NCBI GenBank assembly: GCA_963771045.1
Contig: CAVYRW010000004.1
Span: 401,436 to 465,435 of the forward strand
Source: Waddliaceae bacterium
Lineage (GTDB): Bacteria; Chlamydiota; Chlamydiia; Chlamydiales; SLFE01
DNA length: 64,000 nt
Reading direction: 5' to 3'
The notes under the pieces were generated by a model. The model did no database searches and had not been told where the DNA came from. It worked only from the letters and a program-made list of their open reading frames with translations. The position numbers were made by a program, and so were the translations under genes. Each line of letters opens with the position of its first letter. Position 1 is the stretch's first letter. Below, one piece after another: positions 25,409 to 48,451 of the stretch.

Positions 25409-25959
25409 TCCAAAATGGCCCGCTTGTCTGTCATTTTCTTGAAAAGAACGGCATCGTAGATCCAGTGGCCGCTAAGTGAGGGGGTGCGCCCCGAAGGGAG
25501 CATAACCGCCTCCTTCAATTCCAAAATAAGTTTTCGTTTTTCAGGAGTGAGCGCCTTTTTCAGCTTTTCCATGTACTTCCGGTTGGACGAGATCTCCTCG
25601 CGCTTAAGAACCAGATGTCGAATTTCCAGGGAAGCTTGTAGCCGCCGACGGCAAGCTTGAGCTGGAGGTAGTCGCCACGAGGAAGTTCGGGTCTTTTTTT
25701 ATGAAAGTTTCTTTCGAACCTAACAACCTCAGATTCCGGTATTTGAATGAAATCATAGGCTAGTCCCGCAATGGCGGTGGCCGGATCAAGTCCCCTCGTC
25801 CAATTCGACGATCATGTCAACGTCATTCCAGGCCATAAGGTCAAGAGCGCAGCTGCCGGTGAGGATGACTCTGCCGTATTGGGACAAGGCGGCAAGTATG
25901 CCGAAACCCTCAATGATTTGGCTGGCCTCTTCTCTTAGTTTTTTCGCTTTGTTTGTCAT
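25375..25959 (-). pseudogene. Nucleotidyltransferase-like protein with two frameshifts
   Basis: MTNKAKKLREEA..LTGSCALDLMAWNDVDMIV (GS..DxD motif), then shifted frames ..WKFDIWF.. and EEISSNRKYMEKLKKALT. Confidence 0.5.
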
Positions 25960-26015
25960 GGATTTTTAACTTTTGTGTTACTATACTATGCTATTTAAAT
26001 AAAAGGAATCCAGAA

Positions 26016-29000
26016 ATGTTTGATGAAGTGACACAGGAATCTTTTGCCGAAAGGGAGAAAAAAGTTCTTGAATTTTGGAAAAAGGAAAAAATTTTTGAAA
26101 AATCGGTCGAAGGCCGCAAAGAGGGTGAAACGTTTGTTTTCTATGACGGGCCGCCCTTTGCGACGGGGCTGCCTCATTACGGCCACCTGCTGGCCGGCAC
26201 CATCAAAGATGTGATTCCCCGCTACAAAACAATGAAAGGGTATTTTGTCCCCCGTCGCTTCGGCTGGGACTGCCACGGCCTGCCCGTCGAGCAGGAGATC
26301 GAGAAAGCGCATGGCCTTTCGGGGGCCAAGTCGATCGAAGAGTTCGGGATCGGCAATTTTAATGAAAAGTGCCGGGAGATCGTTCTACGCTATTCCGAGG
26401 AGTGGAAAGACACTGTCCTCAGGATGGGAAGATGGATCGATTTTGACAACACTTACCGGACAATGGACAGGTCTTTCATGGAGTCTGTCTGGTGGGTGTT
26501 CAAACAGCTCTATGACAAGGGCCTTGTCTATGAAGGGTATAAAGTGATGCCGTTTTCGGCAAAGCTGGGCACTCCGCTGTCGAATTTCGAGGCGGGTGAA
26601 AATTATAAAGAGGTCGACGATCCTTCGTTAACGGTAAAATTCACACTGGAGAAAGATCCCAAGACATTCATTCTGGCATGGACGACTACTCCCTGGACGC
26701 TCGTTTCCAACCTGGGACTTATGGTTGGTCCTGATGTCGATTATGTGAAAATTCACGACAAGGTCGAGGGTCAAAATTACATTTTGGCCAAAGAGCGGCT
26801 GGAGACTTATTTTGACGAGCCGGAAAATTACACGATCATCAAAACCCTCAAAGGAAAAGAGCTGGAAGGGCTTTCATACGAGCCGCTGTTTTCCTACTTT
26901 GCGGATCGGAAGGACAAGGGAGCGTTCCGGGTGATCCTGGAGGAAGAGGTGGCCACTGGTGAAGGAACGGGAATCGTTCATACGGCTCCGGCTTTCGGCG
27001 AGCTCGACTTTTACGCCTGCCAAAGAAACGGCATCGACCTCGTCTGTCCCGTGGACAGCAACGGCCAGTTTACTGAAGAAATTCCGGAGTATGTCGGTCT
27101 TTTTGTCAAAGACGCCGACAAAGATATCATCAAAAGGCTCAAACAAAAGTCCAAAATTGTCCGCCACGAAACGATTCATCACCGCTATCCGTTTTGCTGG
27201 AGATCGGATACGCCTCTGATCTACAGGGCCATGACGACGTGGTTTGTCGCTGTGGAAAAAGTGAAGGACAAAATGATCAGCGCCAATGATAACATTCACT
27301 GGACGCCCGACTACATCAAACACGGCCGTTTCGGAAAATGGCTTGAGGGGGCCAGGGATTGGGCGATCAGCCGGAACCGCTACTGGGGAACGCCGATTCC
27401 CCTTTGGCGGTCGGAAGACGGCGACATTGTCGCCGTCGGAAGCGTGAAAGAACTTGAAGATTTGACCGGAAAGGACATTCAGGACATCCACCGCCATTTT
27501 ATTGACGATCTGACATTCACAAAAAACGGCAAGGTATTCAAAAGAATCCCTGAAGTGTTCGACTGCTGGTTCGAGTCGGGTTCGATGCCTTATGCGCAAA
27601 ACCACTACCCTTTTGAAAATCAGGACAGATTCGATCAGCTGTTTCCTGCCGATTTCATCGCGGAAGGGCTGGACCAGACGCGCGGCTGGTTTTATACTCT
27701 CACTGTTTTGGGAGCGGCCCTTTTTGATAGCGAAGCGTTTAAAAATGTGATCGTCAATGGCATTATTCTCGCCGAAGACGGCGCCAAGATGTCCAAGCGG
27801 TTGAAAAATTATCCCGAGCCGGGGAATGTTATCGAGAAATACGGCGCCGACGCGATTCGCCTTTACATGCTCGACAGCCCCGCTGCCAAAGCCTCCGATC
27901 TTTGTTTCTCCGAAAGAGGAGTGGAGCTGGAACTTAGGCAGGTGTTGATCCCTCTTTGGAATGCTTACAGCTTCTTCATTACCTACGCCCGCATTTGCGG
28001 GTGGAAGCCCGACAAAAAGCTCGAGCTTGAAACTCCGATGGACAAATGGATCGTCTCAATGCTGGGCAAGTTGATCCACGAGGTGGAAGAAGGGCTGGAC
28101 GCTTATGATCTCACACGGGCTGTCAAACACTTTGCCCTGATTTATCAACGAGCTGACAAACTGGTATATCAGAAGAAGCCGCCGCCGTTTTTGGGAAGAA
28201 AAACCTACCGAGGACCGAGGGCAGGCCTTCGCTACGCTTTATTATGTTCTGGTGGAGCTGTCAAAGATCGCAGCGCCGTTTGTTCCCTTTATCAGCGAGA
28301 TGATGTATACAAACCTTCGAAGCGAAGATATGCCCGAATCGGTTCACCTTTGCCATTTTCCACAGTACCGAGAAACCTGGCGGGATATTCATCTTGAACA
28401 GGCTATGGCCGCCGTGCAAACTGTCGTCAGTTTGGGTCATTCGCTAAGAAAGGAAAATAAGCTGAAGGTCCGCCAGCCTCTTCCCACTGTGCATATTGCT
28501 TCTCCGAACGAAAAAACGCTTGGCTTTTTAGAAGAGCAAAAACACCTGATTCTTGATGAATTGAATGTGAAAAATATTGAGTTTATCGGAGATGAAAAAG
28601 AGCTTGTGTCTTTGAGCGCCAAGCCGAATTTCAAAGTTCTCGGTAAGGAAGTGGGCAAACTGATGCCGAAGGTTCAAAAGGCGATTCAGAATCTTCCTCA
28701 AAAAGAGCTGGAGATTATTTTGAATGGCGGTCTTGTGACTCTGGAAGTCGAAAGTGTCCGGCTCAAGCTCGGTTCAAATGAAGTTCTTGTCGACCGGACT
28801 GTCCGTGAAGGATTCATTGCGGCAAATGAAGGGGTGATCACTGTCGCCCTTGATACGGCTTTGACCGAAGAACTCGAAATTGAAGGACTTGCCCGCGAAG
28901 TGGTGAATAAAGTGAATACGATGCGCCGAGAAGGCGGGTTTGATGTGACAGACCGCATTCATCTCACTTTGCAAACTACTCCTAGAGTGCAGAAAAGCTT

Positions 29001-29133
29001 TGAAGAACATGGCGATTATATCAAACAGGAAGTGCTCGCTAAGACGGTCGCATTCTCCGAATGCGATGGGACCGAGTGGGACCTAAACGGCGAGAAGACC
29101 ATCATAAAGATAGAAAACGTTAATCCATCTTGA
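26016..29133 (+). CDS. ileS: Isoleucyl-tRNA synthetase (type 2), one apparent frameshift near 28135
   Basis: PFATGLPHYGH, GWDCHGLP, AWTTTPWTL, DWAISRNRYWGTP, EGLDQTRGWF, KMSKR; shifted frame resumes ELTNWYIRRSRRRFW. Confidence 0.95.
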
Positions 29134-30754
29134 AGTTTTGATGCTCTTGAGCGTGGGTGATGATTTCGATTTCCCGGTCATAACCTTTTTGGCAAGCATG
29201 CTTATAAAGATTGTCTTTGACACCTGTTATGGAAAGGCGGTCGCGGTTTTGCAGTATTCCTTGAAACCTCTTATGATGCATTTCCTGTTTTTTTGCCAAA
29301 ATTGTCGGGGCTAAAGTCACAACCGTTTGTATGTGCCTACTTTCGATCGAAGCATCGCGCGTGTAAATTTTCATTAATTCAAGAAGCAGAAAAATGGTTT
29401 TACCAGACCGGTCAACGGCATCTTTGCAGACGACAAAGATGGCATCCGGCTTGTAGTATCTTTGGCAAAGGAAGATAAAAAGCGAGTAAAAAATATCGAT
29501 AAAATCCTTACGTTTCTGCCTGTCTAAACGCGCTACGTTAAAAAAGACATCACGGTGAATTTGGTCGAGAAGTTCAGTCGTCTCCTTTCGAAAATTCTGG
29601 TCTTTTTTAATCGAATCGGGGCAGTGATTAGCCGGAGTGTTAAAAAACTGGTTGATGATTGCTTCCTTAAATTTTTCAGCGCTATAAAACGACTTCCATT
29701 GCCCCGATTGATGATAAAACTTCGTATCATGATCAAGAGTAAAGAAATTTTTTTCCATGCCGACGCTTTCAAATCCTCCTTTGAGCGCTTCTGTCCGGGA
29801 GATTTCCGCCGGGGTTTCTAATTTCGGTTTCATGATATCTTCTGTTGTGGCGCATTGAAGATTGAAATACAGAATGTTATTTCCCGCATCATGCGAGTGG
29901 CGAAGGTACGCTTGAAATTCAGGAGACATAATGGCTTGGCTTCTCTCGATTTCGGGATTGGAAAAACCAATAGTGGGTGTCCCTGTGCGGATAAAACGGG
30001 TTGTGTAGCCCAAAATTTTGAGGTCGAAGAGAACAAAAGGGGGATTGCCCATTAACAGTGGGTCGAAACCGTAGCCTAAAGCTCCTTTTACCTTATTTGC
30101 CGAAAGAGCAAAAATAGGGGCTTTGTATGATTGAGGGCATTGATAAATGGCGTTTTGCTGCTTTTCTAAGCTAAGCGCATCTATATTGATCGTGTCCGCC
30201 CCGATTTGAATGATACGAGTCAGAACTAAATCGGCAAATGTATAGAGCTTGGAATTGTATAATGCGGCAGCTATTTGGTGCAGCTGGGAGACATCTACTG
30301 ATTGAGTATTTAGGGCCTGCTCGTATTCATTGGAGAGAAGAGCCTCTCGTAGAGAGTTGATTATCCTATGATATTTTTCCCTGGGACCGCCTTCGAACTT
30401 ATCTATTTGTTTATGTAGGATGATAATTATTTCTTTTATTCGGATTTGAAGAGGCCTCAGTTTGTCATCTTGAAGAGTTTTGAGATTGTGGATGTCACCC
30501 GGAATATTGGTGAAGAATTCCATGAGGAGAAAAGAATATTTCATTTTCTTCCATTCGTGATCGCCGTCGGAAATGCAGTCGTACGGATATCTGATGATTC
30601 CAAGCAAACCACCGAATGAAGGTATATAATTTTCGAATTGCTGATAAAAATATTTCCAGGCTATCTTGACAACAGCGTTTGTGTCCAAAGTTCTACTAAG
30701 CTGCAACCTAAGATCAGGTGCTTTTGAATTGTTTGTACGGTCCGGCGGTTCCAT
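29120..30754 (-). CDS. Putative CX5R phosphatase effector
   Basis: IFVVCKDAVDRSG motif (29408-29428); no signal peptide. Confidence 0.6.
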   Translation of the reverse strand: MEPPDRTNNSKAPDLRLQLSRTLDTNAVVKIAWKYFYQQFENYIPSFGGLLGIIRYPYDCISDGDHEWKKMKYSFLLMEFFTNIPGDIHNLKTLQDDKLRPLQIRIKEIIIILHKQIDKFEGGPREKYHRIINSLREALLSNEYEQALNTQSVDVSQLHQIAAALYNSKLYTFADLVLTRIIQIGADTINIDALSLEKQQNAIYQCPQSYKAPIFALSANKVKGALGYGFDPLLMGNPPFVLFDLKILGYTTRFIRTGTPTIGFSNPEIERSQAIMSPEFQAYLRHSHDAGNNILYFNLQCATTEDIMKPKLETPAEISRTEALKGGFESVGMEKNFFTLDHDTKFYHQSGQWKSFYSAEKFKEAIINQFFNTPANHCPDSIKKDQNFRKETTELLDQIHRDVFFNVARLDRQKRKDFIDIFYSLFIFLCQRYYKPDAIFVVCKDAVDRSGKTIFLLLELMKIYTRDASIESRHIQTVVTLAPTILAKKQEMHHKRFQGILQNRDRLSITGVKDNLYKHACQKGYDREIEIITHAQEHQNFKMD

Positions 30755-32786: not shown

Positions 32787-35700
32787 ATGACTATTAACTC
32801 GAAAAATAATAAATATTTTAATCATTTAGGCGCTGCTGTTAAATGCATAGAAGTGAAGTCTAAAGGCAGATCTGCTGTTAAAAATTTGTTTTTTAAACAA
32901 ATGCTTATGCTGAAGCGTCTCTTTTATTTTTTTCGCTTTGGAGTGTGGTTTAACAATAAGAAGGGGCGCAAAATTGTCCTGCTGTATATCTGGGAGACAA
33001 AAAAGGATCAAAAAAGCAGCGAGCAAAATGAGAAAGTTAAGAAAATTTTTGAAAAACTGTCGGTTTTAAAAAATGGAACTTATACCAAAGACATTGAGTG
33101 CTCTCTGATTGATACCGTCTTTGAAGATGATGAACGAGGCTATACCGCAGCCCAAGGAATGCCGGTTCCGACAGCCAAACTTCTTTTCCATATTCATGCC
33201 GATGAATTTGGAGCCAATAATAAATCCCTGGAAGGATCGACAGCACTTCCCAATCTCGAATATCTGTATCTTTTTCTGAAAAAGAAAGAGAAGCAAACGG
33301 GTGAAGACTATGGAATGAGTCAGGAGATTTGCGACGAGCTTGCCGAGGCTGTTTGTCTGGAACAATCCAAAAATTTCACTGCGGATGCCGCAAAAGCCAT
33401 CGACAGGGCTTTTAAGAAAAGGAAAAGGGTTTTGTTTAAAGGCGGGTGGACCGGATCACCGGGCCATGCCATTTATTATGAAATCATTCCCGACACTTCT
33501 TCGACAGCGAGCGTCAGATTTTATAATCTGGGTGGGGGTGTGAATCGGCATTCAGCTAAATTCTCTGGAGGAAAAGTCAAATACTCTCCCTACATTGAAT
33601 TTTCCGGCGTCTCGAAAGAGAGGCTCCTCGACAAAAATCATTTAAAGATCATTCATGAACTTAAAACTGTCGTTTTGCATCCGAACACCGCAAACAAAAC
33701 CGAATTTAACGAAAAAGATATTTATGAAGGGTTGGTCGGCATTCTGAAGCCGGAGTCTGCCAAAGAAGATTTTACCTGTTCGGAAACGCTTTTCAAAACG
33801 ACGCAGCATAGCGGCATCTGCGCCTGGAGATCCTTGATGGCCTTTATGTCTGCCAGGCTTGAGGGCGATCAATACAAAAAATTCATCATCGATATCAAAA
33901 TGCAAAGTTTGGCGGATAAGACCGAAGCTATATCTTCCAAAACCTTAACCATAAATGAATGGAGGCTGGCTTCCAAATCTTATCAAAAACTTTGCCGCTC
34001 TGTCGCAAAAGCCTATGACCGGGGCATTATCGGCGGCCGCTATATGGCTCGTGCCCAGCTTCAACTAGCGAAGTCGGAGTCGGCGATCAATGAAAGTAAA
34101 AAGAACATTTTCCCCGCATCGCCAGGAGTCGCTGCTTTGAAAGCACCCAGATGGCCTTCAAGTAAAGTTAAAAAAAGTTATTTTCTCACTGAATCTCTTG
34201 AAAACAAAGCGCAAGGCATCACAAGCAAGGGGGAGTCATTTCCGTGTTCTTATGTTGTCGATAAGATAAATAAAGCAAAAAGCAAATACACGCCTCAAGG
34301 TCTTAAAAGAGTTTTGGAAATTGCGCAAAAAGCTTCTGAAAATGGAGAGCATCATGCGGTTCATATTGCTCTTAACCGGTATATTTCTTCATGGCCTATT
34401 GATAAGGGGAAAAATGATGGCAATGATTTAGAAACGGCAAAAGAAATGATTAACGATTTGGGAAAAATAGCCCGTCTATTTTTTAAAGAGAGCCTCCATA
34501 TCCCATCTGCCGATAATGTCCGGCCCGACAGCCTTTACTGCCTCGTGAAAATCCTATATTTGCAAAAAAAGCTCTTGGAAAATGAATTTAACGATATGCC
34601 ATTTCTTCGCAATGTCATGAAGAAATATGATATATATTTCCTCTTAAATGACGCTCGAAAAAATCATGAATATAGTAAGATTTTATACAACTTGGTCGGA
34701 TATACCGTAATGCCAAAATATACTTTCGATTCAAGCAAGGATGTCGGAAAAAGTTCTCATCTACAGTTCGAAAATGAAGAAAAGGGCTTAAGTGGTTTTG
34801 CTCGAAAGCAATTTTTGGATATTAAGACCCAACTATCAAAAAATGATCCCGACTTTAAGCATTTGCCTCAAAGCGGTCAGGACGCAAGACTTTTTACAAG
34901 CGACAAACTTCCCGCTTGGTTTCAAGGATTGAGGGACACCTTGCTCTATGTACACATTTTGCAGAATGAACCGATCGCAACGCCTTCCTCAGAAAACCTC
35001 GACCTCTCATGGGAGTTTGCATGCCGTGACGTGAAAGATTACAATGATAAAGATGTTTGCAAAGTGGATTTTGGGGTCAAGGGCTTGACCGGAGATCTCC
35101 TGAAAAAATATCCAGCTCTTAAGGAATTCAGATACAAGCCTGAGCTTCGCTACTCCTGGCTCTTGCGTCCTATAAAATCAGAAAAACTCCAAAGGTTTGT
35201 GCGTTTTCTCTGCTCAATCAACTATAACTATAATGAAAAAAAAGTTCTTGCCGATTTTAAGTTAGGGAAGGAAATGGGGTTTTCCGATGAAGCTTTTAAA
35301 GAATTAACCCACATTTTCTTAAGAGGGAAATTTAATATTTCCGAGGGTTTTGAGTATTTTTTGAAGCACCCGGAAAAACTGCGCGACCCGGATTATCAGG
35401 TTTTATTCCAACTGATATTCTTTCATAGATCCAAACTGCATAATGAATGCTTAATTAACGATTTTTCCGACTTATTTACAGATTTTTTGCGCAATCAATA
35501 TTTGAACTGTCTTGAAGAAAACGATATCCAAACATCGGTCTTCCTGCTTAGAATGCTCAGGCTTGTCTCCGAGTTTTCTGATCAAAATCAGAGCATGGAT
35601 CTTTATATTGGAAAATTGCGCGCTATCAGCAGACGGAATGGTTTGTCCATCGACGAAAAAGGGGTCATATTTGGAGAGCTGATCGTTTGTCTTGGGAAAA

Positions 35701-38700
35701 AGGATCAATTATCTGATCAGGATATCAAAGATTTGCTGACAGGATCTGTTTATTTACAGGAAAATCCCGTGTGCAGCCGGTGGAAGTGCCCGCAAACCGA
35801 AAAAGAGGTGATTGAAGCGCTCCATATCCACGCAAAACAAATTGCCGATGCTCTTGACCCGAAAGAAAGAGGGGACGGCCACAAGCTATTAAATTATGTG
35901 TCCCATTTTATGCGGGGAACAGGGGATCAACAGTGGCAAGGAAGTTTCCCCTGTTTTAAAACTCAAGACGGCCGGCATGTTTATTACCCTCTTGCTGCAA
36001 GGCTGATATCGGAGAATCATGAAACCAAGCTTCCGGAAGCTATTCGGAATCATCCCGATTTCAGGCAATTATTTACCGGAATCGAGAGGGCCGTTTCTTT
36101 AAAAAACGGCGTTTATCAATTTAGGGGCAAGCACGGTTTTAAAACTCTCATTTATTTGGACAACAAAAATCGGCTTAGTATAGAGCAGGTGCGGGGAGAT
36201 GAGCGCTATCGATTTATCCCGAGAGAGGCCTTTTCAATAGAGAAAAAAAACGCCTTAATCAGCCGCCACCTGCAGGACAACTTTCATCATTGGCAGCCCT
36301 TGGCAAGTCCAAACCGTATTGAGATCGTTGATCCGGAATCGGAGATGACTGTCTACCGAGCGCACCAAAAAAACGGCCGCCTGAAGAAAATTGAGATGGT
36401 AAAGGAAAATTTCAAGCTTTCCCTCCCTTCAAAGGTGTTTACACGATTCGAAAGCCCGATGTACATTCAGCAGTGGTACAATGGCCGCAAAAAATTTGCC
36501 CGGTGCGAACTCCCTCGTTTCAACCTTTCTTTTATTCCCGATGCTAAAGACAGCTCGAAACTTCTCTGTGACCGGTTCATTGATGAGGGCTATTACCTAA
36601 GCTCAAAATCGCACATCCCCTATCTTGGGTCTTTTCAACATTATCTCATCCTTGAAAATCCCGAAGGAAAACTCAAAGTATTGATCCCCAAACGAGATCT
36701 TCGTAAAAATGAGAAGCAGAAAGAATCCCTTCAGCCTTTGTTTGAATTTGATATGAAGTGTGCGGCAGAGGACAACGCCAAACAGCAATACGAAGTTTAC
36801 GATGTTGACAAGTCGGCAGCCTTGACTTCTTCTTCTCAGGAAAGCCGGCTGTATCTAGCGCTGATTTTGGCTGCTGTCCAGGAATACGAAAGTGCGGCAA
36901 AGATTTTGGAAACAAGCGGGAGAAAATTAAGTTCTTATACTCCATCGCAAGAGAGCCTACTCTCCCAACTGATGAATATGAAGCAATACACCGGAGACGC
37001 AAGCGGCAACGGCATTGTACTTCGCTTGTATGCAAGCTATCTTCTTGTGAAAAACAAGGTCAATTCCAATCTTGATGTTCCTTCTTCTTCAGATCCGATT
37101 ATTCGAGAAGCCTTGTTAAAAGCATGGGAACATGATCATAATATAACGGCTTTAAGATTAAAGAGGCATGAAGAGCTGTTTGTATTGAAATATCTTTTAG
37201 GCAAAGAATTTAATGCCTCTCTTTTTGTAAGGTTGAAGCAGTTGGATCCCGATTACGCGAAACGATACCGCCATCCCGATGTGCCGTTTCAAGAAGAGCT
37301 TTCGCAAATCTTTGTCGATCTGAGGCAAAGGTTGAAAAACGATTCTCCCCCTTGCTTATATACAAGATATGATCAATCAAACTGGAAAAACCTTACTACT
37401 AAAAACGTTCTGCTCACCAGAATCAATGAAGATTTAAAAGATCGGTTTTTCGCTTTCTACGATTTGGCAATCCATGGTCCTGAAGACGAGAAGAAGTGGC
37501 TGAAAATCGCCCTTGAATTCGGGAAACACCAAGAGAAGGGGGAAGAATGGAGGGAATTGTTTGCCCGTATTTTGGATAATCCAGAAAAATTTCCTCCCCT
37601 TCCAGATAGTTCGCAAAACTCTAGAGAGTGGTTTCGCGGCGTTGTCGAAACGGCTGAGCCTAGATTGATTTTAAAAAATCAAACCGAGAAGAAGTCTTGG
37701 CTGCCGTCGGAAGTTGCTGAAGAGAAGGCGGAGCTGCCTGTTGAATTCAAAGTCAGCTATCATTTTGAGGCCGCGCAGACATTCCGGCAAACGCTCGATA
37801 GCAAAAAGTGCTTCCTCGTGAAAGAGGCGGCCCAAGAAATTAACAGGGGGCTAAACAACTGGTTTGAGATGAAATTGAAAAATCCAGCAATCGACGAGCA
37901 GTTGTTTATTCAGGAAATTAAGCGTTTAAAAAATGATCAATATGCTTATGTAAAAAATGCGGCAACTCAGGTTTACTCTTTGAACCCTGGCGCCGAAACG
38001 ACGATCGCTAAGATTTTGAATGAGGGGGCCCAGGAGAAGGAAAATCAACTGAAAAAGCTTGAGATCGAAATCCTAAGTCTTGCCAACCGGCCTCCGAAAA
38101 GTGCGCAGGAGAAAGCGTATCATTTTCTGCTTCTCGGAGGACGAAACCGGAAAGTCATTACCTTGGAGGAACTTCTGGTTGCTTTCGGCAAACATTCGCC
38201 GGCTTCACTCAAGAAACAAAATCCCGCGTTAACCGAAAGCGAGATTGAAACAATTCTGAATAAAGTCGGGGACTATTTAATTTTGGCCACTCGTGAACAG
38301 CAGCGTCTCAGGGCAAAGAAGATTTTCGAAAAATTCAAGAATTGCCCAAAAGAAGACAAGGAAGACAAGAATGATTACCGCCAGCTGCTGGCCATGGAGC
38401 TTATGGTTGAAAGAAAGTATGTACCGAACGCTCATCCTGCCTATTTGGTCTTCGAATATTATGCCGATATTCTGCTTCGCCCCATGCAAGTGGATAAACT
38501 GAGCTCCTTTCTTCAAGAGAAAGATCAAAATCCCGTGATGGAAATGATCATGGGTTCGGGAAAGTCCAAGGTTCTTCTCCCCCTTCTCGGGCTTTTGAGA
38601 GCGGATGGAGAAACAATTTCCACGCTCGTTGTTCCTAAGCCGCTGTTTGAAAGCGTCTCTGCCGATACCCAAAAATACCTTCAGGAGGCTTTCTCACAAC

Positions 38701-41594
38701 GTCTGCACACCTTCCATTTTAATCGAAATACTCAGTTCACAACATCCTATCTTCACTCGATTTTAGACGAACTGGATGCGATACAAAAGGAGGGGGGCTG
38801 TTTGATCATGACGAGCAAGAGCTTGCAATGCCTCATCTTGAAGTTTATCGAAATATCGCTCAAAGATTTGTTCAAAAATGAAACCTCTGAAGAGTTGAAG
38901 CTGATGACTCAAATTCTTCAAAGAATCAGGAAAAACGGCCACCCGTTGATTGACGAGGCCGACACGATCTTAAACGTCTTGCATCAAATATGCTACAGCA
39001 CGGGTAAGAAATTGAGTCCTGATTGCGATGAGATTAAGCTCATTTCTGAAATTTATGAGATTATTTATAGCGATAAAAAAATCAAAACCATCGCCAGGAT
39101 TGAAAGCAATCCTTCCTCGAAGTCAAATGCCGGCGTTCTTACAGAAAAGCTTTACCAGAATAAATTGAAGAAATTGATTGCGGCAAAAATTGTGTCGAAA
39201 TTGCAGTCAATGGAATTTTCTTCGGCTGAAAAAACAGAAAAGGTGAAGGATTTCTTCGGAAATTTAGAAGAAATGCCGTTGGCCGTCCGCTATCTTTTCC
39301 GGGACAGTAAAGAAAAGGAAAATATACAATCGTTTTATGACAAACAAGATCGCGATATTCAAAATATTCTCGCACTTTCTTCCGAAGTGATCAGTCGCCT
39401 TCTTCCCCATACGCTGACACGAAATTGCGATGAGAGGTATGGCCTGGATCAGAAAAATGGCGGAGCCATCGCGATTCCATTCGCTGCGGCCAATACTCCG
39501 AATATCGGCTCTCAGTTCGCCAATCATTATATCACGATGAACTACACTTTTCAGTACTATGTGAAAAAGGGAATTTCTCAAGAGATTATCGAACAGCAGA
39601 TCAAAAGGCTCCAAGGTGAGGCGCTTGGTGAATTGAAAGAAGAGGGCAGAGGCGCTAACCTTGAAAATACAAACGCATGGAAACAATTTCTCAAATTGAA
39701 AGGAGATATCGATATCACCCTTTTCAATTATAACAAGCGGCAGCTGCAGTCTCTTATCGCATATGTCAACAGCTCCCGAAAGCATAAACTGAGCTTCATA
39801 TCGGAGATTATCCTTCCGGAGGTGCAGCTTTTCTCTCAAAAGCTCGCGTGCAACTCTCATAATCTGATCGACTTTTTTCTTAAAGCTTCAGGCTTTACCG
39901 GTACCCTTTGGAATGCCAGCAGCATGCATCGTAAGCTAAGTCCCGAGCCTGAGGAGGGGACCGACGCGAAAACGTTAAAACTTCTTTGGGAAAACAAATT
40001 AAATGCCGTCCATTCAATACAAGAGGGGTCTGTTTCCGATAGGCTCAAATGGCTGAAGAAGCAAAACATATCCTACGATCTCATCAGCGATGCCGGCGGC
40101 TACTTTAAGGAAGGAGGAAATGCCCGCATTGCGTGTGAAATGTCAGCAATTCAGAACAAACCTGTTGTGTACTACAACACAAATAATGAACAGGTGGAAT
40201 TTTTTAATGGCAAAGAGGTGCCTCTTGCCGAGTCCAAAACGGCAATTGAGGATCGGTGCACATTCCTCGACCAATCCCACACAACCGGAGCCGATGTCAA
40301 ACAGAAAAAAGACGCCGTTGGCCTCGTGACAATCGGCCGCAATATGCTCCTTCGTGATCTGCTGCAAAGCGTGTGGCGTCTTCGCGGATTGGATAAATCG
40401 CAGCGTGTGAAATTTCTCGTTTCATGCGAAGTGGAATCCATTATCAGGCAGTCTCTTTCTATTTCAAACGACAAGACTTTGTCTTTTGGCGAAATCCTGG
40501 AGTTTACGATTGTCAATCAGGCAAGGCAGCAAGGCAAGGATAATTTCAAAGCTTTGAGGCAGGAGCTCAAAACCCTCTCGCAATCGATACTCTTAAATTC
40601 CCTGCTCAGCCAAGAGCTCACCCTGCAAGAGAAAAGAGCGGCCTCTGAATTTCTTACAAAAGAGTGGATCGAATCATCTGCTCTTGAGCCGAGAGATATC
40701 TATGGAATAATACCTTCGAAAGCTCCAAGCCAAGACGTTCTTTTACAAGAAAAGAAGAAGGCAGAAGAGCATATTCAAAAGATTATCAGGGGCCTTCCGT
40801 TCTTAGAAGAGAAGGAAATTATCCCAACCGATATTTTTGAACAAATCGACAACATAACCTCAAGACTTGAGGGTTTGCTCCCAAGAGAAGTTACTGTTCC
40901 TATTAGAGAGCTCGACGATGATCAGACTGTTGAAATCGAGCAGGAAACCGAGCAGGAGAATCAAACCCAAATTCAGGTGCAGTCTCATCAAATTGATCAA
41001 GAAGTGAAACTGGGACAAATAAATTGTCCCGGAAAATATAAGTTTTCAGATGACATTTCCAACGAATTGTTCCCCGGGAAAGAAGGCCCGTCTTACTATC
41101 AAGATCTGCCCTGCTTTCCTCTCAAAGCCTATTTGGAAAACGATCCGGTTCTTAAAGATTATGTTTCTGCCTTCGAGGGGATTTACGCGACGCTCAATGT
41201 TTTTGAATGGCCTGAGGAAAAACCCGATATCAGTGATCTCAAATTGCTCGGCGCCTGCCGCACCCCGTTTCACTTTGTTCAAGTTTTTGACAATGATGAC
41301 ATCCTGATTCTATCACATAACGAATCCTCTGCCAAGGATCACTACAACCTGACCTTCGGATTTTACGACAAAAAGCGCGCTGTTTCCCTTGAGCTGCTTA
41401 AAAATATCGTCAAAGTTAAATTCTTGAATGGAGATTCTGACTTCACCAAAAAAGAGTTGAAGATCCTCAAATCCTGGATTGAGTTCCATGGAGCTGAAAA
41501 AATGCAGTATCTATATGAACATCATATTCTCAACGGATTCCCCGAAAAAGCGGCTTGCTATGCAAACAGTCAGCTCCGACGAATTTGGCAGTAA
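32787..41594 (+). CDS. 2935-aa protein: N-terminal protease-like domain plus C-terminal DUF3638-like SF2 helicase/ATPase
   Basis: H227/N247/Q340/C345 motifs; MGSGKS (38550), IDEAD (38952), SGFTGT, DQSHTTGAD, QSVWRLR. Confidence 0.75.
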   Translation: MTINSKNNKYFNHLGAAVKCIEVKSKGRSAVKNLFFKQMLMLKRLFYFFRFGVWFNNKKGRKIVLLYIWETKKDQKSSEQNEKVKKIFEKLSVLKNGTYTKDIECSLIDTVFEDDERGYTAAQGMPVPTAKLLFHIHADEFGANNKSLEGSTALPNLEYLYLFLKKKEKQTGEDYGMSQEICDELAEAVCLEQSKNFTADAAKAIDRAFKKRKRVLFKGGWTGSPGHAIYYEIIPDTSSTASVRFYNLGGGVNRHSAKFSGGKVKYSPYIEFSGVSKERLLDKNHLKIIHELKTVVLHPNTANKTEFNEKDIYEGLVGILKPESAKEDFTCSETLFKTTQHSGICAWRSLMAFMSARLEGDQYKKFIIDIKMQSLADKTEAISSKTLTINEWRLASKSYQKLCRSVAKAYDRGIIGGRYMARAQLQLAKSESAINESKKNIFPASPGVAALKAPRWPSSKVKKSYFLTESLENKAQGITSKGESFPCSYVVDKINKAKSKYTPQGLKRVLEIAQKASENGEHHAVHIALNRYISSWPIDKGKNDGNDLETAKEMINDLGKIARLFFKESLHIPSADNVRPDSLYCLVKILYLQKKLLENEFNDMPFLRNVMKKYDIYFLLNDARKNHEYSKILYNLVGYTVMPKYTFDSSKDVGKSSHLQFENEEKGLSGFARKQFLDIKTQLSKNDPDFKHLPQSGQDARLFTSDKLPAWFQGLRDTLLYVHILQNEPIATPSSENLDLSWEFACRDVKDYNDKDVCKVDFGVKGLTGDLLKKYPALKEFRYKPELRYSWLLRPIKSEKLQRFVRFLCSINYNYNEKKVLADFKLGKEMGFSDEAFKELTHIFLRGKFNISEGFEYFLKHPEKLRDPDYQVLFQLIFFHRSKLHNECLINDFSDLFTDFLRNQYLNCLEENDIQTSVFLLRMLRLVSEFSDQNQSMDLYIGKLRAISRRNGLSIDEKGVIFGELIVCLGKKDQLSDQDIKDLLTGSVYLQENPVCSRWKCPQTEKEVIEALHIHAKQIADALDPKERGDGHKLLNYVSHFMRGTGDQQWQGSFPCFKTQDGRHVYYPLAARLISENHETKLPEAIRNHPDFRQLFTGIERAVSLKNGVYQFRGKHGFKTLIYLDNKNRLSIEQVRGDERYRFIPREAFSIEKKNALISRHLQDNFHHWQPLASPNRIEIVDPESEMTVYRAHQKNGRLKKIEMVKENFKLSLPSKVFTRFESPMYIQQWYNGRKKFARCELPRFNLSFIPDAKDSSKLLCDRFIDEGYYLSSKSHIPYLGSFQHYLILENPEGKLKVLIPKRDLRKNEKQKESLQPLFEFDMKCAAEDNAKQQYEVYDVDKSAALTSSSQESRLYLALILAAVQEYESAAKILETSGRKLSSYTPSQESLLSQLMNMKQYTGDASGNGIVLRLYASYLLVKNKVNSNLDVPSSSDPIIREALLKAWEHDHNITALRLKRHEELFVLKYLLGKEFNASLFVRLKQLDPDYAKRYRHPDVPFQEELSQIFVDLRQRLKNDSPPCLYTRYDQSNWKNLTTKNVLLTRINEDLKDRFFAFYDLAIHGPEDEKKWLKIALEFGKHQEKGEEWRELFARILDNPEKFPPLPDSSQNSREWFRGVVETAEPRLILKNQTEKKSWLPSEVAEEKAELPVEFKVSYHFEAAQTFRQTLDSKKCFLVKEAAQEINRGLNNWFEMKLKNPAIDEQLFIQEIKRLKNDQYAYVKNAATQVYSLNPGAETTIAKILNEGAQEKENQLKKLEIEILSLANRPPKSAQEKAYHFLLLGGRNRKVITLEELLVAFGKHSPASLKKQNPALTESEIETILNKVGDYLILATREQQRLRAKKIFEKFKNCPKEDKEDKNDYRQLLAMELMVERKYVPNAHPAYLVFEYYADILLRPMQVDKLSSFLQEKDQNPVMEMIMGSGKSKVLLPLLGLLRADGETISTLVVPKPLFESVSADTQKYLQEAFSQRLHTFHFNRNTQFTTSYLHSILDELDAIQKEGGCLIMTSKSLQCLILKFIEISLKDLFKNETSEELKLMTQILQRIRKNGHPLIDEADTILNVLHQICYSTGKKLSPDCDEIKLISEIYEIIYSDKKIKTIARIESNPSSKSNAGVLTEKLYQNKLKKLIAAKIVSKLQSMEFSSAEKTEKVKDFFGNLEEMPLAVRYLFRDSKEKENIQSFYDKQDRDIQNILALSSEVISRLLPHTLTRNCDERYGLDQKNGGAIAIPFAAANTPNIGSQFANHYITMNYTFQYYVKKGISQEIIEQQIKRLQGEALGELKEEGRGANLENTNAWKQFLKLKGDIDITLFNYNKRQLQSLIAYVNSSRKHKLSFISEIILPEVQLFSQKLACNSHNLIDFFLKASGFTGTLWNASSMHRKLSPEPEEGTDAKTLKLLWENKLNAVHSIQEGSVSDRLKWLKKQNISYDLISDAGGYFKEGGNARIACEMSAIQNKPVVYYNTNNEQVEFFNGKEVPLAESKTAIEDRCTFLDQSHTTGADVKQKKDAVGLVTIGRNMLLRDLLQSVWRLRGLDKSQRVKFLVSCEVESIIRQSLSISNDKTLSFGEILEFTIVNQARQQGKDNFKALRQELKTLSQSILLNSLLSQELTLQEKRAASEFLTKEWIESSALEPRDIYGIIPSKAPSQDVLLQEKKKAEEHIQKIIRGLPFLEEKEIIPTDIFEQIDNITSRLEGLLPREVTVPIRELDDDQTVEIEQETEQENQTQIQVQSHQIDQEVKLGQINCPGKYKFSDDISNELFPGKEGPSYYQDLPCFPLKAYLENDPVLKDYVSAFEGIYATLNVFEWPEEKPDISDLKLLGACRTPFHFVQVFDNDDILILSHNESSAKDHYNLTFGFYDKKRAVSLELLKNIVKVKFLNGDSDFTKKELKILKSWIEFHGAEKMQYLYEHHILNGFPEKAACYANSQLRRIWQ

Positions 41595-45372: not shown

Positions 45373-46881
45373 ATGCTGAGAAAAGGTTTATTTTTAATCA
45401 TTTTTATTTTTTCTTCCGGAAGCGTTTTCTCAGACGAGAATAAGTCCGAAAGCCTGTGCCCGTCCAAACCTGATTGCCTGGAAGAGAAAACCGAAACGAC
45501 TCAGCATGAAGCTAAAATCAATGGCCGTGCGATTAAATATACCGCGACTGCCGGCACAATCGTCTTGAGAAACAAGGAAGGCGAGGGCGAAGCGAGCATT
45601 TTTTATGTCGCCTATACAAAAAATAATGAAAACGACCTCTCGAAAAGACCTGTTACATTCTGCTTCAATGGCGGTCCGGGTTCTTCTTCCGTTTGGCTCC
45701 ATCTGGGAGCGCTTGGCCCGAGGCGCCTTGCGATGAATGTCGACGGAACCCCCGAGAGGCCTTATCATCTTGTTGACAACGAATATTCCCTGCTCGATAT
45801 CACCGATCTTGTTTTCGTCGACCCCGTATCCACCGGCTACAGCCGCGTCGCCCCGGATGTCGAGGCGAACAAATTTCATGGCGTTGAACAGGACATCAAG
45901 TCTGTCGGGGAATTCATTCGCCTCTATACAACGCAAAACGGAAGGTGGACGTCACCTAAGTTTATCGCCGGGGAAAGCTACGGAACGACGCGGGCAACAG
46001 GCCTTGCGAGCTATCTCTATGACAATACGCGCATGGAAATGAACGGCATTTTGCTGATCTCTGCGGTTCTCGACTTTCAGGCTTATTATTTTTCCATGGG
46101 CAACGATTTGCCCTATATAACCTTTCTCCCCACTTATTCCAATATAGCCTGGTATCACAAAAAGCTCGATAAAGATTTGCTTCAAAACTTCTTTAAGACA
46201 CAAGAAGAAGTGAAAGAGTTTGCTTTAGGGGAATATGCCAGCGCTCTTGTACAGGGAAACCGTTTGAAAGAAAAGGAAAGAAACCGCATTGCCGAAAAGC
46301 TGTCCAGATACACCGGTCTCGACAAAAACTACATTCTCAAGTCAGACCTTAGGGTGAATATGGCCAGCTTTGTTAAAAAATTGATGAATGGGGAGGACCG
46401 CCTGGTCAGCCGCTTCGACGGCCGCATGCTGGGCATTGACGAGGATCCGACATCATCGAGGGTTTCGTATGATCCCATGCTGTCGCTCATTGCCCCTGCG
46501 TTTACATCCACAATGAATCAATATCTTCAAGGCGAGCTGAACTGGAAAGAGACCCGCGAGTATGAAATCCTGGCCATGGGGCTCTATCCCAAGTGGGATT
46601 GGAGCAAAGCCAAGAACCAATACCTCAATATGAATGAAGACCTTCTTGACCTCATGTCGCAAAACCCCCACTTCCGCGTCTTTGTCGCAAGCGGCTACTA
46701 CGACCTGGCGACTCCTTTCGAGGCGACCGACTATACATTCGCCCATCTGCCGATCGACCCGATCCTAGAGCGTAACATCACGATCAGATATTACGACGCC
46801 GGCCATATGATGTATATTCATAAGCCGTCTCTTGTGAAACTCAAAAGGGATATGGCCGACTTTGTGAGGGGGTCTCTGTAA
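45373..46881 (+). CDS. S10 serine carboxypeptidase, exported
   Basis: FNGGPGSSS, DPVSTGYS, GESYG, GYYDLATP, AGHMMY. Confidence 0.92.
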   Translation: MLRKGLFLIIFIFSSGSVFSDENKSESLCPSKPDCLEEKTETTQHEAKINGRAIKYTATAGTIVLRNKEGEGEASIFYVAYTKNNENDLSKRPVTFCFNGGPGSSSVWLHLGALGPRRLAMNVDGTPERPYHLVDNEYSLLDITDLVFVDPVSTGYSRVAPDVEANKFHGVEQDIKSVGEFIRLYTTQNGRWTSPKFIAGESYGTTRATGLASYLYDNTRMEMNGILLISAVLDFQAYYFSMGNDLPYITFLPTYSNIAWYHKKLDKDLLQNFFKTQEEVKEFALGEYASALVQGNRLKEKERNRIAEKLSRYTGLDKNYILKSDLRVNMASFVKKLMNGEDRLVSRFDGRMLGIDEDPTSSRVSYDPMLSLIAPAFTSTMNQYLQGELNWKETREYEILAMGLYPKWDWSKAKNQYLNMNEDLLDLMSQNPHFRVFVASGYYDLATPFEATDYTFAHLPIDPILERNITIRYYDAGHMMYIHKPSLVKLKRDMADFVRGSL

Positions 46882-48451
46882 TTCTCTGGGTTGAAAATCC
46901 AAGGCCTTGAAGAAAACTTTGAACGCTTTTGGCGCCGGATGTATGTCCGGCTCCCACGCAACAGAAAATTTTTCCGTCTTCTTTAACAAGTTCTGCAATT
47001 TTTGAGGCCATATTCCGGTTGCGCTCCCACATCGTCTTTTCTTTCGGCTTTGCAGGGGAAAATTCATCAACATCTCCTCTTTCCCAGGCATCGAATTTTG
47101 GCTGTAGATCTATTTTTAGATACAAAGAAATTTGTTCGATAAGCAATTCTACGGCCTGAGAGATATCCCCGTCCTGTGGAAGTTCATTTGACAAGGCGTT
47201 GATTATTTTGTTCCCAATAGGATCCTCTGCAAGCATTTTTTGTGTCATTTTCTGTGTGAAATATTGTTCGAGTGTCTCCAATGCTTCAATGGGTTTTCCG
47301 TGTTTTGTTGCCTTTTGAATCAAATTGTAGTCCATTCCGGATAAAAGGCCGTTTTCTGCGAATATCCGAGCTCGAAGTTTTAAGAGGGATTGTTCAATAA
47401 AGACGTTCTTTTGAAAATCTATCCTTTCAGCGGCTTTGGGGAATAATTCTTTTAGATGATGATAAAGCCTATCTCTTTGTTCCGCGGGCATGTTTTTGAT
47501 CTTAGAAGTGCCATAGTTTGTCCTCTTCTGTTTTGTTACGTCGATTTCCACCGCAAGGCGTGCGGATCGTTTAAACGCTTCTCTGATACGGGAATTTAAG
47601 TGGAGCAAATAATTCGGCGTTCGATGTATCGAACCCAAAAGATAGCCGACTGTATTGTTTTCTTTCTTGATTTTCCAGAAACATCCTATCGGCTCTCGTA
47701 TGGGGCCTCTTGTTTCGATTTTGTAAAAATAACGAAGAAATAGGTTTACCTCAGAGATTGTGTCCGGACTTTCGTTAAAAATCAAAAGCGTCTTTTTTTC
47801 AGATAAAAGATACTTGTGGATCCTCTCCGCTATCGCCAGTGAATTTTCGAAATATTCAATTTTAGTGTCAAAATTCAGTTGAGGTGTTTCGATTTTTTCT
47901 GGAGAGCCTGCATCCCAAAAATTTTGGGAAAATAATGTCTTTTGATTTTGTTCAACAAGATATTCGACTTGTTTTCCATGTTCCATAGCAAATTGCTGTA
48001 TGCTTGCTTTCGGATCTGATAGAGGCTCCTTGGATTGATTTTTTAGGTCCAAATTTTTTGACAGTGCGATGAGGGTTTTGACGGCAATGGCAGTGGAGAA
48101 TTTTTTTGCGTCCCCTTCAACCCTATTGTCAATAAAAGTCAAATCTATGTCCTGACTTTTCATCCTTTTGGTTAAAGAGTCATTGATTCTCTTCAGAGCC
48201 TGCTTGTCATAGTTTTTTTCCAGGAGGCGGCAGAACGTGTCCATGGAATCTTTTTGTTCATCTTTGGGTGGAGTGTCGAAGACAACAAGCTCGGCTTCCT
48301 TTAACACAGTTTTGAAGCGGCGGTTTTTCAAAGGGTTGACCGATGATGGAGCGGTCAGGAAAAGATGGAGTATTTTTTCCTTTGAATCGGAATCAATAGG
48401 TTGCAAAGCAATTTGATAGAGATAACCGGGATTGGTAGAATTTAAAAACAT
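46841..48451 (-). CDS. TraB/GumN (Tiki-like) domain protein with long N-terminal extension
   Basis: YLLGSIH, LAVEID, GMDYNL, ALETLEQ, ERNRNMASKI, VGAGH. Confidence 0.75.
   Translation of the reverse strand: MFLNSTNPGYLYQIALQPIDSDSKEKILHLFLTAPSSVNPLKNRRFKTVLKEAELVVFDTPPKDEQKDSMDTFCRLLEKNYDKQALKRINDSLTKRMKSQDIDLTFIDNRVEGDAKKFSTAIAVKTLIALSKNLDLKNQSKEPLSDPKASIQQFAMEHGKQVEYLVEQNQKTLFSQNFWDAGSPEKIETPQLNFDTKIEYFENSLAIAERIHKYLLSEKKTLLIFNESPDTISEVNLFLRYFYKIETRGPIREPIGCFWKIKKENNTVGYLLGSIHRTPNYLLHLNSRIREAFKRSARLAVEIDVTKQKRTNYGTSKIKNMPAEQRDRLYHHLKELFPKAAERIDFQKNVFIEQSLLKLRARIFAENGLLSGMDYNLIQKATKHGKPIEALETLEQYFTQKMTQKMLAEDPIGNKIINALSNELPQDGDISQAVELLIEQISLYLKIDLQPKFDAWERGDVDEFSPAKPKEKTMWERNRNMASKIAELVKEDGKIFCCVGAGHTSGAKSVQSFLQGLGFSTQRITETPSQSRPYPF

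Follow-up and report, generated by a model that had tools for sequence, protein, structure and literature searches.

What does the giant gene at positions 32787-41594 of the window encode, and where would its product act? By the window we mean the whole stretch of 64,000 nucleotides analysed here, which comes from a Waddliaceae bacterium, an environmental chlamydia of the Parachlamydiales type. The original prediction had described a protein of 2,935 residues, free of a signal peptide, in which a cysteine-protease-like N-terminus of the CE clan is joined to a superfamily 2 (SF2) helicase-like domain, and it had read the whole as a secreted deubiquitinase or protease-ATPase effector. The single open frame was confirmed on the forward strand, with 2,935 codons that begin with an ATG at 32787 and end with a stop at 41592-41594. 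The encoded protein has a mass of about 335 kDa and is predicted to be soluble. In agreement with the prediction, neither a signal peptide nor a transmembrane segment was seen when we looked for them, and the Kyte-Doolittle hydropathy stays at or below 1.4 in every 19-residue segment of the whole protein.

In outline, a CE-like head followed by an SF2-like motor, the original prediction was right; its specific reading was only partly supported. Our best explanation, to which we give a probability of roughly 0.5, is a joint one: the protein may be a host-directed giant that combines a thiol hydrolase head with a SecA-like ATP motor working on a macromolecule. The head would act as a thiol hydrolase using a Cys-His-Asn triad. 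The motor would be an ATP-driven remodelling or clamping engine and the indispensable part of the machine; its substrate would be a macromolecule and, in view of the SecA-like architecture, perhaps a polypeptide. The protein would be exported through the type III system toward a eukaryotic host, namely an amoeba. The odds for any specific substrate are much lower than those for the joint reading.

Conserved catalytic-type residues in the head domain

The putative catalytic residues of the head lie in three segments, each of which occurs once in the protein and at the residues given by the original prediction: GGWTGSPGHAIYY (residues 219-231, with His227), FYNLGGG (residues 245-251, with Asn247) and QHSGICAW (residues 340-347, with Gln340 and Cys345). 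Conservation of the His, Asn and Cys in homologues was one of the points on which the original prediction had staked itself, and it held. Among 28 full-length homologues, which are 29-43% identical to the query, His227, Gln340 and Cys345 are kept in all 28 and Asn247 in 26. Several residues around them behave in the same way, with Gly219, Gly220, Trp221, Gly226, Gly343 and Ser349 invariant in the 28 homologues and His135 and Asp311 present in 27 of them. The pattern extends to a larger set of 177 head instances, where the His is found in 165 of 171, the Asn in 160 of 174 (with Asp in a further 7), the Gln in 161 of 169, the Cys in 159 of 168 and the glycine at position 343 in 157 of 170. One sequence alone could show the order His, Asn, Gln, Cys by chance; because it is conserved across homologues, it is not a chance arrangement. 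The alignments support the view that these N-terminal residues belong to a real and conserved thiol-enzyme-like domain, with catalytic-type residues in clan-CE order.

Fold and structural relatives of the head

The head alignment (A1) covers residues 95-470, and the AlphaFold2 model of the head, obtained with the 28-sequence alignment, has a predicted local distance difference test score (pLDDT) of 86.4 and a predicted template-modelling score (pTM) of 0.85. In this model His227 is the first residue of a beta-strand (133-141 in model numbering), Asn247 is placed where the following antiparallel strand (model 146-152) ends and Cys345 starts a helix (251-263 in model numbering). The putative triad of AnkH has been described with the same secondary-structure placement (PMC6712400).

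Structural searches with the head model led to one small group of proteins. Foldseek returned matches only to LegA15, AnkD and AnkH, with E-values of 5e-6 to 4e-4. An aligner independent of Foldseek gave AnkD (7ew8) at Z 18.0-18.1 over 251 residues and 3.6 A, and AnkH (6mca) at Z 15.6 over 255 residues. In a further structural search LegA15 (7kj6_A) was matched at Z 19.5 over 264 residues and 3.6 A, and its complex with guanylyl imidodiphosphate (GDPNP; 7xql_A) at Z 19.4. All other head matches listed had Z values of 7.8 or less and were aligned to the helical cap only. Neighbours of the head in the ESM Atlas include two Legionella "Dot/Icm substrate" clusters carrying the Pfam family PF28177 (T4SS_AnkD), with a template-modelling score of 0.59, and also two eukaryotic clusters without a family. 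Positions 34-347 of the model align to positions 168-461 of the LegA15 chain. Model His133 and Cys251 stand against chain positions 268 and 361, at offsets of 135 and 110, and the offsets at the two ends of the alignment are 134 and 114; the model is thereby consistent with His227 being the counterpart of LegA15 His268 and Cys345 that of Cys361. Because the match begins past the ankyrin repeats of the Legionella protein, only the protease-like core and the cap are common to the two.

At the level of sequence, PDB searches with the whole protein and with the head profile gave nothing meaningful, the head profile having no match at E up to 10. Residues 95-470 matched no Pfam family, the CE families C48, C55, C57 and C5 included, even with E-values allowed up to 10. 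A search of a word index with the head profile, restricted to near lengths, returned three fragments only and no named stand-alone relatives.

The likeness to LegA15/AnkD (PDB 7KJ6, 7XQL and 7EW8) and AnkH (6MCA) is one of fold, over about 255-264 residues at Z 15.6-19.5, together with His, Asn/Asp and Cys in the same order and placement. The Gln-x4-Cys spacing equals that of LegA15, where the residues are Gln356 and Cys361 (PMC9757750). Local motifs are common to both as well, namely GHA, N/D-x-G and G-x-C-x-W, and PGHA, YNLG and GICAWRSL of the head parallel rGHa, D-N-R-g and GNCSWANV of the AnkH family (PMC6712400). On the other hand, there is no detectable sequence similarity between them (10-14% identity in the structural alignments), and the chlamydial protein has no ankyrin repeats before the domain according to Pfam scans of the whole protein and of residues 95-470. 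The chlamydial head is moreover fused to about 2,500 more residues, including an ATPase, and the bacteria that carry the two kinds of protein belong to the phylum Chlamydiota in one case and to the Legionellales in the other.

With the peptidases of clan CE (Ulp1/SENP of family C48, XopD, ChlaDUB1, YopJ and adenain) the head shares the order His, Asp/Asn, Gln, Cys, the His lying on a strand, the Asp or Asn on the adjacent one and the Cys at the N-terminus of a helix. It differs from them by its extra helical cap and in the spacing of the catalytic-type residues. For Ulp1 and XopD the His-to-Cys spacing is about 61-70 residues. Set against these values (compare PMC6712400), the spacing in the head is 118 residues. 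Of the CE-clan-like head that had been proposed, the residue order and the AnkH-like placement on the secondary structure stood, whereas no match to a CE family, to a PDB sequence or to a CE chain among the structural matches listed was obtained.

A predicted ATPase motor with SecA-like architecture

The second module is defined by the Pfam family DUF3638 (PF12340), which matches residues 1876-2077 with an E-value of 2.6e-29 and 102.6 bits against a cut-off of 31. It was the sole match of the protein in Pfam and NCBIfam, everything else being sub-threshold noise. DUF3638 also matches 27 of 27 aligned homologues and DUF3645 (PF12359) matches 19 of them (best E-value 7.4e-5); for the query itself DUF3645 is not reported at E up to 1 or 0.1 in Pfam scans. 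Weak ResIII matches appear in 8 of the 27 homologues and weak DEAD matches in 5, and a PDB sequence search with the motor profile gave nothing meaningful. The motifs MGSGKS, IDEAD, GFTGT, DQSHTTGAD and QSVWRLR, all quoted by the original prediction, are each present once in the protein (Table 1), and GFTGT is nearly invariant to invariant in alignment A2. Asp2495, Gln2496, Gly2501, Arg2523, Asp2524, Gln2527, Arg2531 and Arg2533 are kept in 27 of the 28 full-length homologues, and residues 2501-2550 make up the best-conserved block of 50 residues in the protein, with a column identity of 0.73.

The AlphaFold2 model of residues 1860-2620 (pLDDT 81, pTM 0.72) has two RecA-like domains. Motifs II and III are separated by an insert of about 275 residues, largely helical, and the second RecA domain is followed by a helix of 41 residues. 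With this model Foldseek placed SecA structures on top (1tf2, E-value 7.9e-6), followed by DinG, RapA, MDA5 and UvrB. SecA again came first with the independent aligner (2fsf, Z 12.4 over 372 residues), with SecA2 (4uaq) at Z 10.9; DEAD-box, DEAH, DinG, XPF-type and other SF2 cores reached Z values of 8-9.7. The alignments to SecA and SecA2, top by both methods, cover residues 17-754 of the motor model. The motor is predicted to be catalytically complete, judging by its nucleoside triphosphatase (NTPase) motifs, and the nearest solved fold to the model is that of the SecA polypeptide motor.

The resemblance to SecA and SecA2 extends to a large insert that separates motifs II and III and to the long helix that follows the second RecA domain. 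In SecA, the insertion between these motifs is the position of the preprotein-binding domain. The motor differs from SecA and SecA2 in that the identity is 9-11% with a root-mean-square deviation of 5-6 A, in that its insert is mainly helical and unrelated in sequence to that of SecA, and in that no evidence was found for SecY association or membrane targeting of the giant protein. Because no SecA profile matches, the motor is not a member of the SecA family and the resemblance is one of fold only; none of the SecA-specific Pfam domains was detected in the protein or in the 27 homologues. The designation "SF2 helicase-like" was correct insofar as DUF3638 is a P-loop, SF2-like ATPase. Its nearest architecture, though, is SecA rather than a nucleic-acid helicase, and nothing points to a nucleic-acid substrate. 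A Pfam match to a TBP-TOTE "conflict system" at residues 2159-2189 was rejected, as it reached 18 bits against a cut-off of 27, fell in a helical stretch and recurred in none of the 27 homologues.

Distribution of the family and relation of the two modules

The full-length homologues have 2,763-3,385 residues, and those named by source come from Parachlamydia, Criblamydia and uncultured chlamydial metagenome-assembled genomes (MAGs). In a species-level genome collection there were 21 named loci, all from chlamydial MAGs except for one contig of 1.3 kb from a bin labelled Verrucomicrobia. The head profile (A1), run against 1.84 billion representatives, matched 1,887 representative clusters at E <= 1e-3, of which 355 were matched at E <= 1e-30. 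Of the 150 best clusters, almost all are proteins about 3,000 residues long or pieces of such proteins. When 300 genomes were sampled evenly across the phylum, the head was present in 113 of them and in 85 of 165 genera, and single genomes carried as many as six copies or more; no copy was found in the 24 sampled genomes, each about 1.1 Mb in size, of one genus. The genome of the window (2.57 Mb in five contigs, 90.6% complete) carries one copy of the head, which was found neither in a genome of the same genus (88% complete) nor in another genome from that taxonomic family (99% complete). Thus distributed, the head-bearing gene behaves as accessory gene content, and the family is large and has expanded by paralogy. 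Viral contigs of IMG/VR, scanned with head patterns, yielded no confirmed relative; these patterns are specific to the chlamydial subfamily, and the result says little about giant viruses.

The relation between the two modules was followed in 126 family proteins that have both; they are mutually related and were selected by the head profile, and the counts are descriptive only. The head His and Cys, the Walker A Lys and the Walker B Asp-Glu are all kept in 114 of them, and one has an altered Walker B. The other eleven (P0122, P0132, P0136, P0137, P0147, P0150, P0154, P0178, P0037, P0040 and P0041) lack the head His or Cys, yet Walker A and Walker B are intact in all of them, as are the two arginines of QxxWRxR in the nine where this motif is aligned. 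To judge from these motifs, the motor is presumably live in the eleven proteins whose head is dead, and the pattern suggests that the motor is indispensable while head catalysis can be dispensed with.

The genome also contains a second DUF3638 gene, outside the window. It codes for 2,002 residues, is very divergent and has about 22% identity to the family in the motor only. It follows an open reading frame (ORF) of 1,365 residues with an overlap of 10 nucleotides (L004:247-4344 and L004:4335-10343, equal to G000:C4:655246-659343 and 659334-665342). The 1,365-residue ORF had no detectable relatives in the set used, and an AnkD/AnkH-like head was present neither in it nor in the second DUF3638 gene. 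The two could be coupled genes or a single frameshifted gene of about 3,360 codons.

Beyond the bacteria, the DUF3638/DUF3645 giants of fungi and protists resemble the chlamydial protein in their P-loop/DEAD-like ATPase module, with phmmer E-values of 6e-20 to 3e-16 to fungal proteins, and in their overall size of about 3,000 residues. The fungal proteins differ in that their similarity to the query is limited to the motor (13-24% of the query) and in that they begin with DUF6606, which has no significant relation to the head. The idea that DUF6606 is a diverged copy of the head found no support, with hhalign probabilities of 0.07-1.3%. At residues ~235-280 of the fungal proteins P0046-P0048, a PWRRSxLWL...YKxF pattern resembles C-A-W-R-S-L...Y-K-x-F of the head and lacks the Cys; hhalign pairs CaWRSL of the head with PWRRSxLW and YKxF with YKxF at a probability of 1.3%. 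Fungal DUF6606 may, on this pattern, be a degenerate and Cys-less relative of the head.

Chemistry of the head, export and competing explanations

The literature on the chemistry of the AnkD/AnkH domain is split between protease and GTPase. LegA15, the closest solved relative of the head, has been reported as a Mg-dependent and Cys-dependent GTPase in which Gln356, Cys361, Lys367, Arg291 and Arg408 matter, Q356A and C361S abolish activity, N290A has a mild effect only and H268A has almost none (PMC9757750). If the head worked in this manner, Cys345 would activate water for an attack on GTP and the protein would be a nucleotide switch fused to an ATP motor. The best structural match being LegA15, the GDPNP complex included, and the conservation here of the Gln-x4-Cys that LegA15 requires both favour such a head. 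It nevertheless strikes us as quite improbable: in the 177 head instances the equivalent of Arg291 (Asn+1) is L, T or S and that of Lys367 (Cys+6) is M, L or F, neither of them basic, in a mapping of the LegA15 GTP site that is anchored on local motifs and not on a residue-level superposition. The His is dispensable for the GTPase activity of LegA15 and is 96% conserved here, and the GTPase assignment comes from one study, at odds with the earlier protease-like reading of the fold. Because of the 96% conservation of the His and the non-basic equivalents of Arg291 and Lys367, we favour a thiol hydrolase over a LegA15-type GTPase. The head is probably not a GTPase in the style of LegA15, and from its residues we infer a Cys-His-Asn thiol hydrolase, that is, a peptidase, an isopeptidase or a related acyl-transfer enzyme.

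A narrower proposal for the same chemistry, and the one closest to the original prediction, is that the head is a clan-CE deubiquitinase or ubiquitin-like (UBL) protease similar to ChlaDUB, Ulp1 and XopD, which is secreted and strips ubiquitin or UBL modifiers in the host. It fits the His-Asn-Gln-x4-Cys order and its placement on the secondary structure, the reported superposition of the AnkH domain on XopD of clan CE, with His243-Asp258-Cys324 lying over the XopD triad (PMC6712400), and the many deubiquitinases encoded by chlamydia-like bacteria (PMC10643670). The UniRef label "ubiquitinyl hydrolase 1", borne by two Criblamydia homologues and by fungal DUF3638 proteins, agrees with it too, as an automatic name taken from the source and not from an experiment. 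We consider the proposal doubtful all the same, given the lack of any Pfam CE family at E up to 10, of any PDB sequence match and of any CE chain among the best 50 matches of three structural searches. Deubiquitinase activity is not reported for AnkH or LegA15, and neither protease nor deubiquitinase activity has been demonstrated in the literature for LegA15/AnkD or AnkH. Of five CE-like candidates from Simkania, four showed no activity on ubiquitin, SUMO, NEDD8 or ISG15 probes or on chains of ubiquitin (PMC10643670).

As to where the protein acts, the sole structural relatives of the head are Legionella Dot/Icm effectors and the motor family is otherwise eukaryotic, as its fungal matches illustrate; the eukaryotic clusters among the Atlas neighbours of the head point the same way. 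Because the relatives of the head are effectors of Legionella, the affinity of the motor is otherwise eukaryotic and the gene has a patchy, multi-copy spread in amoeba-associated lineages, we read the protein as an effector. Genes for an SctV/FlhA-type export gate and for secretins are present in the genome, in line with what is expected of the phylum. The protein is presumably host-directed, toward an amoeba, and exported by the type III system. It could instead stay within the bacterium and serve there, for example, in conflict or defence as a giant NTPase-protease, or take part in the developmental cycle. The lack of a signal peptide and of any demonstrated secretion signal, the extreme size of the protein, the position of the gene among housekeeping genes and not in a recognisable effector island, and the fact that DUF3638-type proteins of free-living eukaryotes must work within the cell would all suit such a role. 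The head, however, has only translocated Legionella effectors as solved relatives, and the family, which is expanded in lineages associated with amoebae, went undetected in the 24 small sampled genomes of one genus. No defence-type genes were seen among the neighbours of the giant gene, and the TBP-TOTE match is absent from the 27 family members scanned. An intrabacterial role thus appears unlikely to us, to much the same degree as a deubiquitinase head.

The reading of the protein as an exported giant with a thiol hydrolase head and a SecA-like motor has its own difficulties. Enzymatic activity is known for no member of the family of either module. The AnkH triad is needed for function in infection, and protease activity was not detected in vitro (PMC6712400); the GTPase activity of LegA15 and the motif-anchored mapping of its GTP site, both described above, weigh in the same direction. 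No classical CE peptidase appeared among the 50 best matches listed in each of the three structural searches, the helical cap filling these lists. The inert Simkania proteins (SnCE2-5), whose membership in the family is not established, are counted here as well (PMC10643670). About 9% of the family lacks the head Cys or His, so that head catalysis is not always required. Finally, secretion is a prediction, and with its 335 kDa the protein would be very big for a substrate of a type III system.

One concrete form of the exported, two-module reading would be a protein-processing machine in the host, in which the SecA-like motor grips or threads a host protein and feeds it to the CE-like thiol hydrolase head. 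We regard this as a long shot, the least probable of the readings set out here. If it were true, protease and unfoldase would here be coupled through an SF2/SecA motor in place of the AAA+ motors of all known ATP-dependent proteases, and the DUF3638 proteins of eukaryotes and giant viruses would be versions of the same machine.

Layout of the protein and the surrounding genes

The features of the gene are collected in Table 1. In the N-terminal leader, the homologues have the short motifs h-x-K/N-C-I and W-x-N-N-K...K-I-V in common, and this region is a candidate secretion or targeting region. The long middle region, which like the C-terminal one is conserved within the family, has scattered residues that are invariant in the 28 homologues (Trp1050, Glu1222, Arg1244, Phe1249, Lys1297 and Asn1812). 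It has no Pfam match, and an Atlas search gave only sub-threshold HEAT/TPR-like leads with scores of 0.76-0.79; it may be an alpha-helical scaffold. For the C-terminal region there was no Pfam match above threshold and no usable Atlas match.

Table 1. Position of the giant gene and of its putative functional features in the window.
Feature	Residues	Window position	Strand	Basis or remark
Whole gene		32787..41594	+	2,935 codons plus stop; homologues align from Met1
N-terminal leader	1-127	32787..33167	+	Column identity 18-38%; outside the LegA15/AnkH match
AnkD/AnkH-type cysteine-protease-like domain with helical cap	128-441	33168..34109	+	AlphaFold2 model, structural matches
His227 codon (CAT), putative general base, in G-G-W-x-G-x-P-G-H-A-x-Y-Y-E	227	33465..33467	+	Conservation, model
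Asn247 codon (AAT), putative third triad member, in F-R-x-x-N-x-G-x-G	247	33525..33527	+	Conservation, model
Gln340-x4-Cys345 (QHSGIC), putative oxyanion-hole Gln and nucleophile Cys	340-345	33804..33821	+	Conservation, model
Middle region	442-1875	34110..38411	+	No recognisable family
DUF3638/DUF3645 two-RecA ATPase module	1876-2620	38412..40646	+	Pfam, AlphaFold2 model, structural matches
Walker A, MGSGKS	1922-1927	38550..38567	+	M1922, G1923, G1925, K1926 in 28/28; S1927 in 27/28
Walker B / motif II, IDEAD	2055-2059	38949..38963	+	D2056 in 27/28; E2057, D2059 in 28/28
Motif III-like, GFTGT	2369-2373	39891..39905	+	G2369, T2371, T2373 in 26/28; G2372 in 27/28
Motif V/VI region, DQSHTTGAD (2495-2503) to QSVWRLR (2527-2533)	2495-2533	40269..40385	+	Candidate arginine fingers R2531, R2533
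C-terminal region (315 residues)	2621-2935	40647..41591	+	Column identity 0.24-0.41; moderate conservation

The G+C content of the gene (0.41-0.43) is similar to that of the flanking DNA. Upstream lie genes for isoleucyl-tRNA synthetase, an ORF without a family and a long signal peptidase I that is transcribed divergently. Downstream there is a CT021-family gene on the opposite strand, followed by genes for nicotinate phosphoribosyltransferase and for a member of the isochorismatase family. These neighbours are unrelated housekeeping genes, and the giant gene stands alone.

Some of the genes nearby deserve a remark of their own. The ORF between ileS and the signal peptidase gene (window 29120-30754, reverse strand) has 544 residues and no Pfam family. 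The isoleucyl-tRNA synthetase gene itself (window 25953-29133, forward strand) is split over two frames with a break near 28138-28141. Frame A, from 25953, turns into Arg-rich nonsense past ...AVKHFAL, and frame B starts at 28141 with FINELTNWYIRRSRRRFW..., the expected continuation, and holds the anticodon-binding and DUF5915 parts. The break has the appearance of a frameshift of one nucleotide in an essential gene. It falls at GCCCTGATTTATC, a sequence that does not form a long homopolymer, and an assembly error is a possible cause, with a real or programmed shift as the less likely alternative. Farther downstream, an ORF of 502 residues (window 45373-46881, forward strand) matches the serine carboxypeptidase family S10 (Pfam E-value 7e-20) and may be another host-like gene, as family S10 is mostly eukaryotic. 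The ORF at window 46841-48451 (reverse strand, 536 residues) has a TraB/PrgY/GumN domain at its C-terminus (E-value 2.7e-32), preceded by about 250 N-terminal residues without an assignment.

Significance for the family

The gene is an intact further member of a large family that is catalogued (DUF3638) and experimentally unstudied; it adds one more member that can be assayed, and no new principle. Among the coding capacity of environmental chlamydiae that has no explanation yet, the family, with about 9 kb per gene, is one of the largest blocks. It links the disputed AnkD/AnkH domain of Legionella effectors, the eukaryotic DUF3638/DUF3645 giants and a SecA-like motor outside protein export. 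Because the equivalent of His227 is near-invariant in so large a family, the ancestral chemistry of the fold would appear to use the full Cys-His-Asn set, which bears on the dispute over LegA15.

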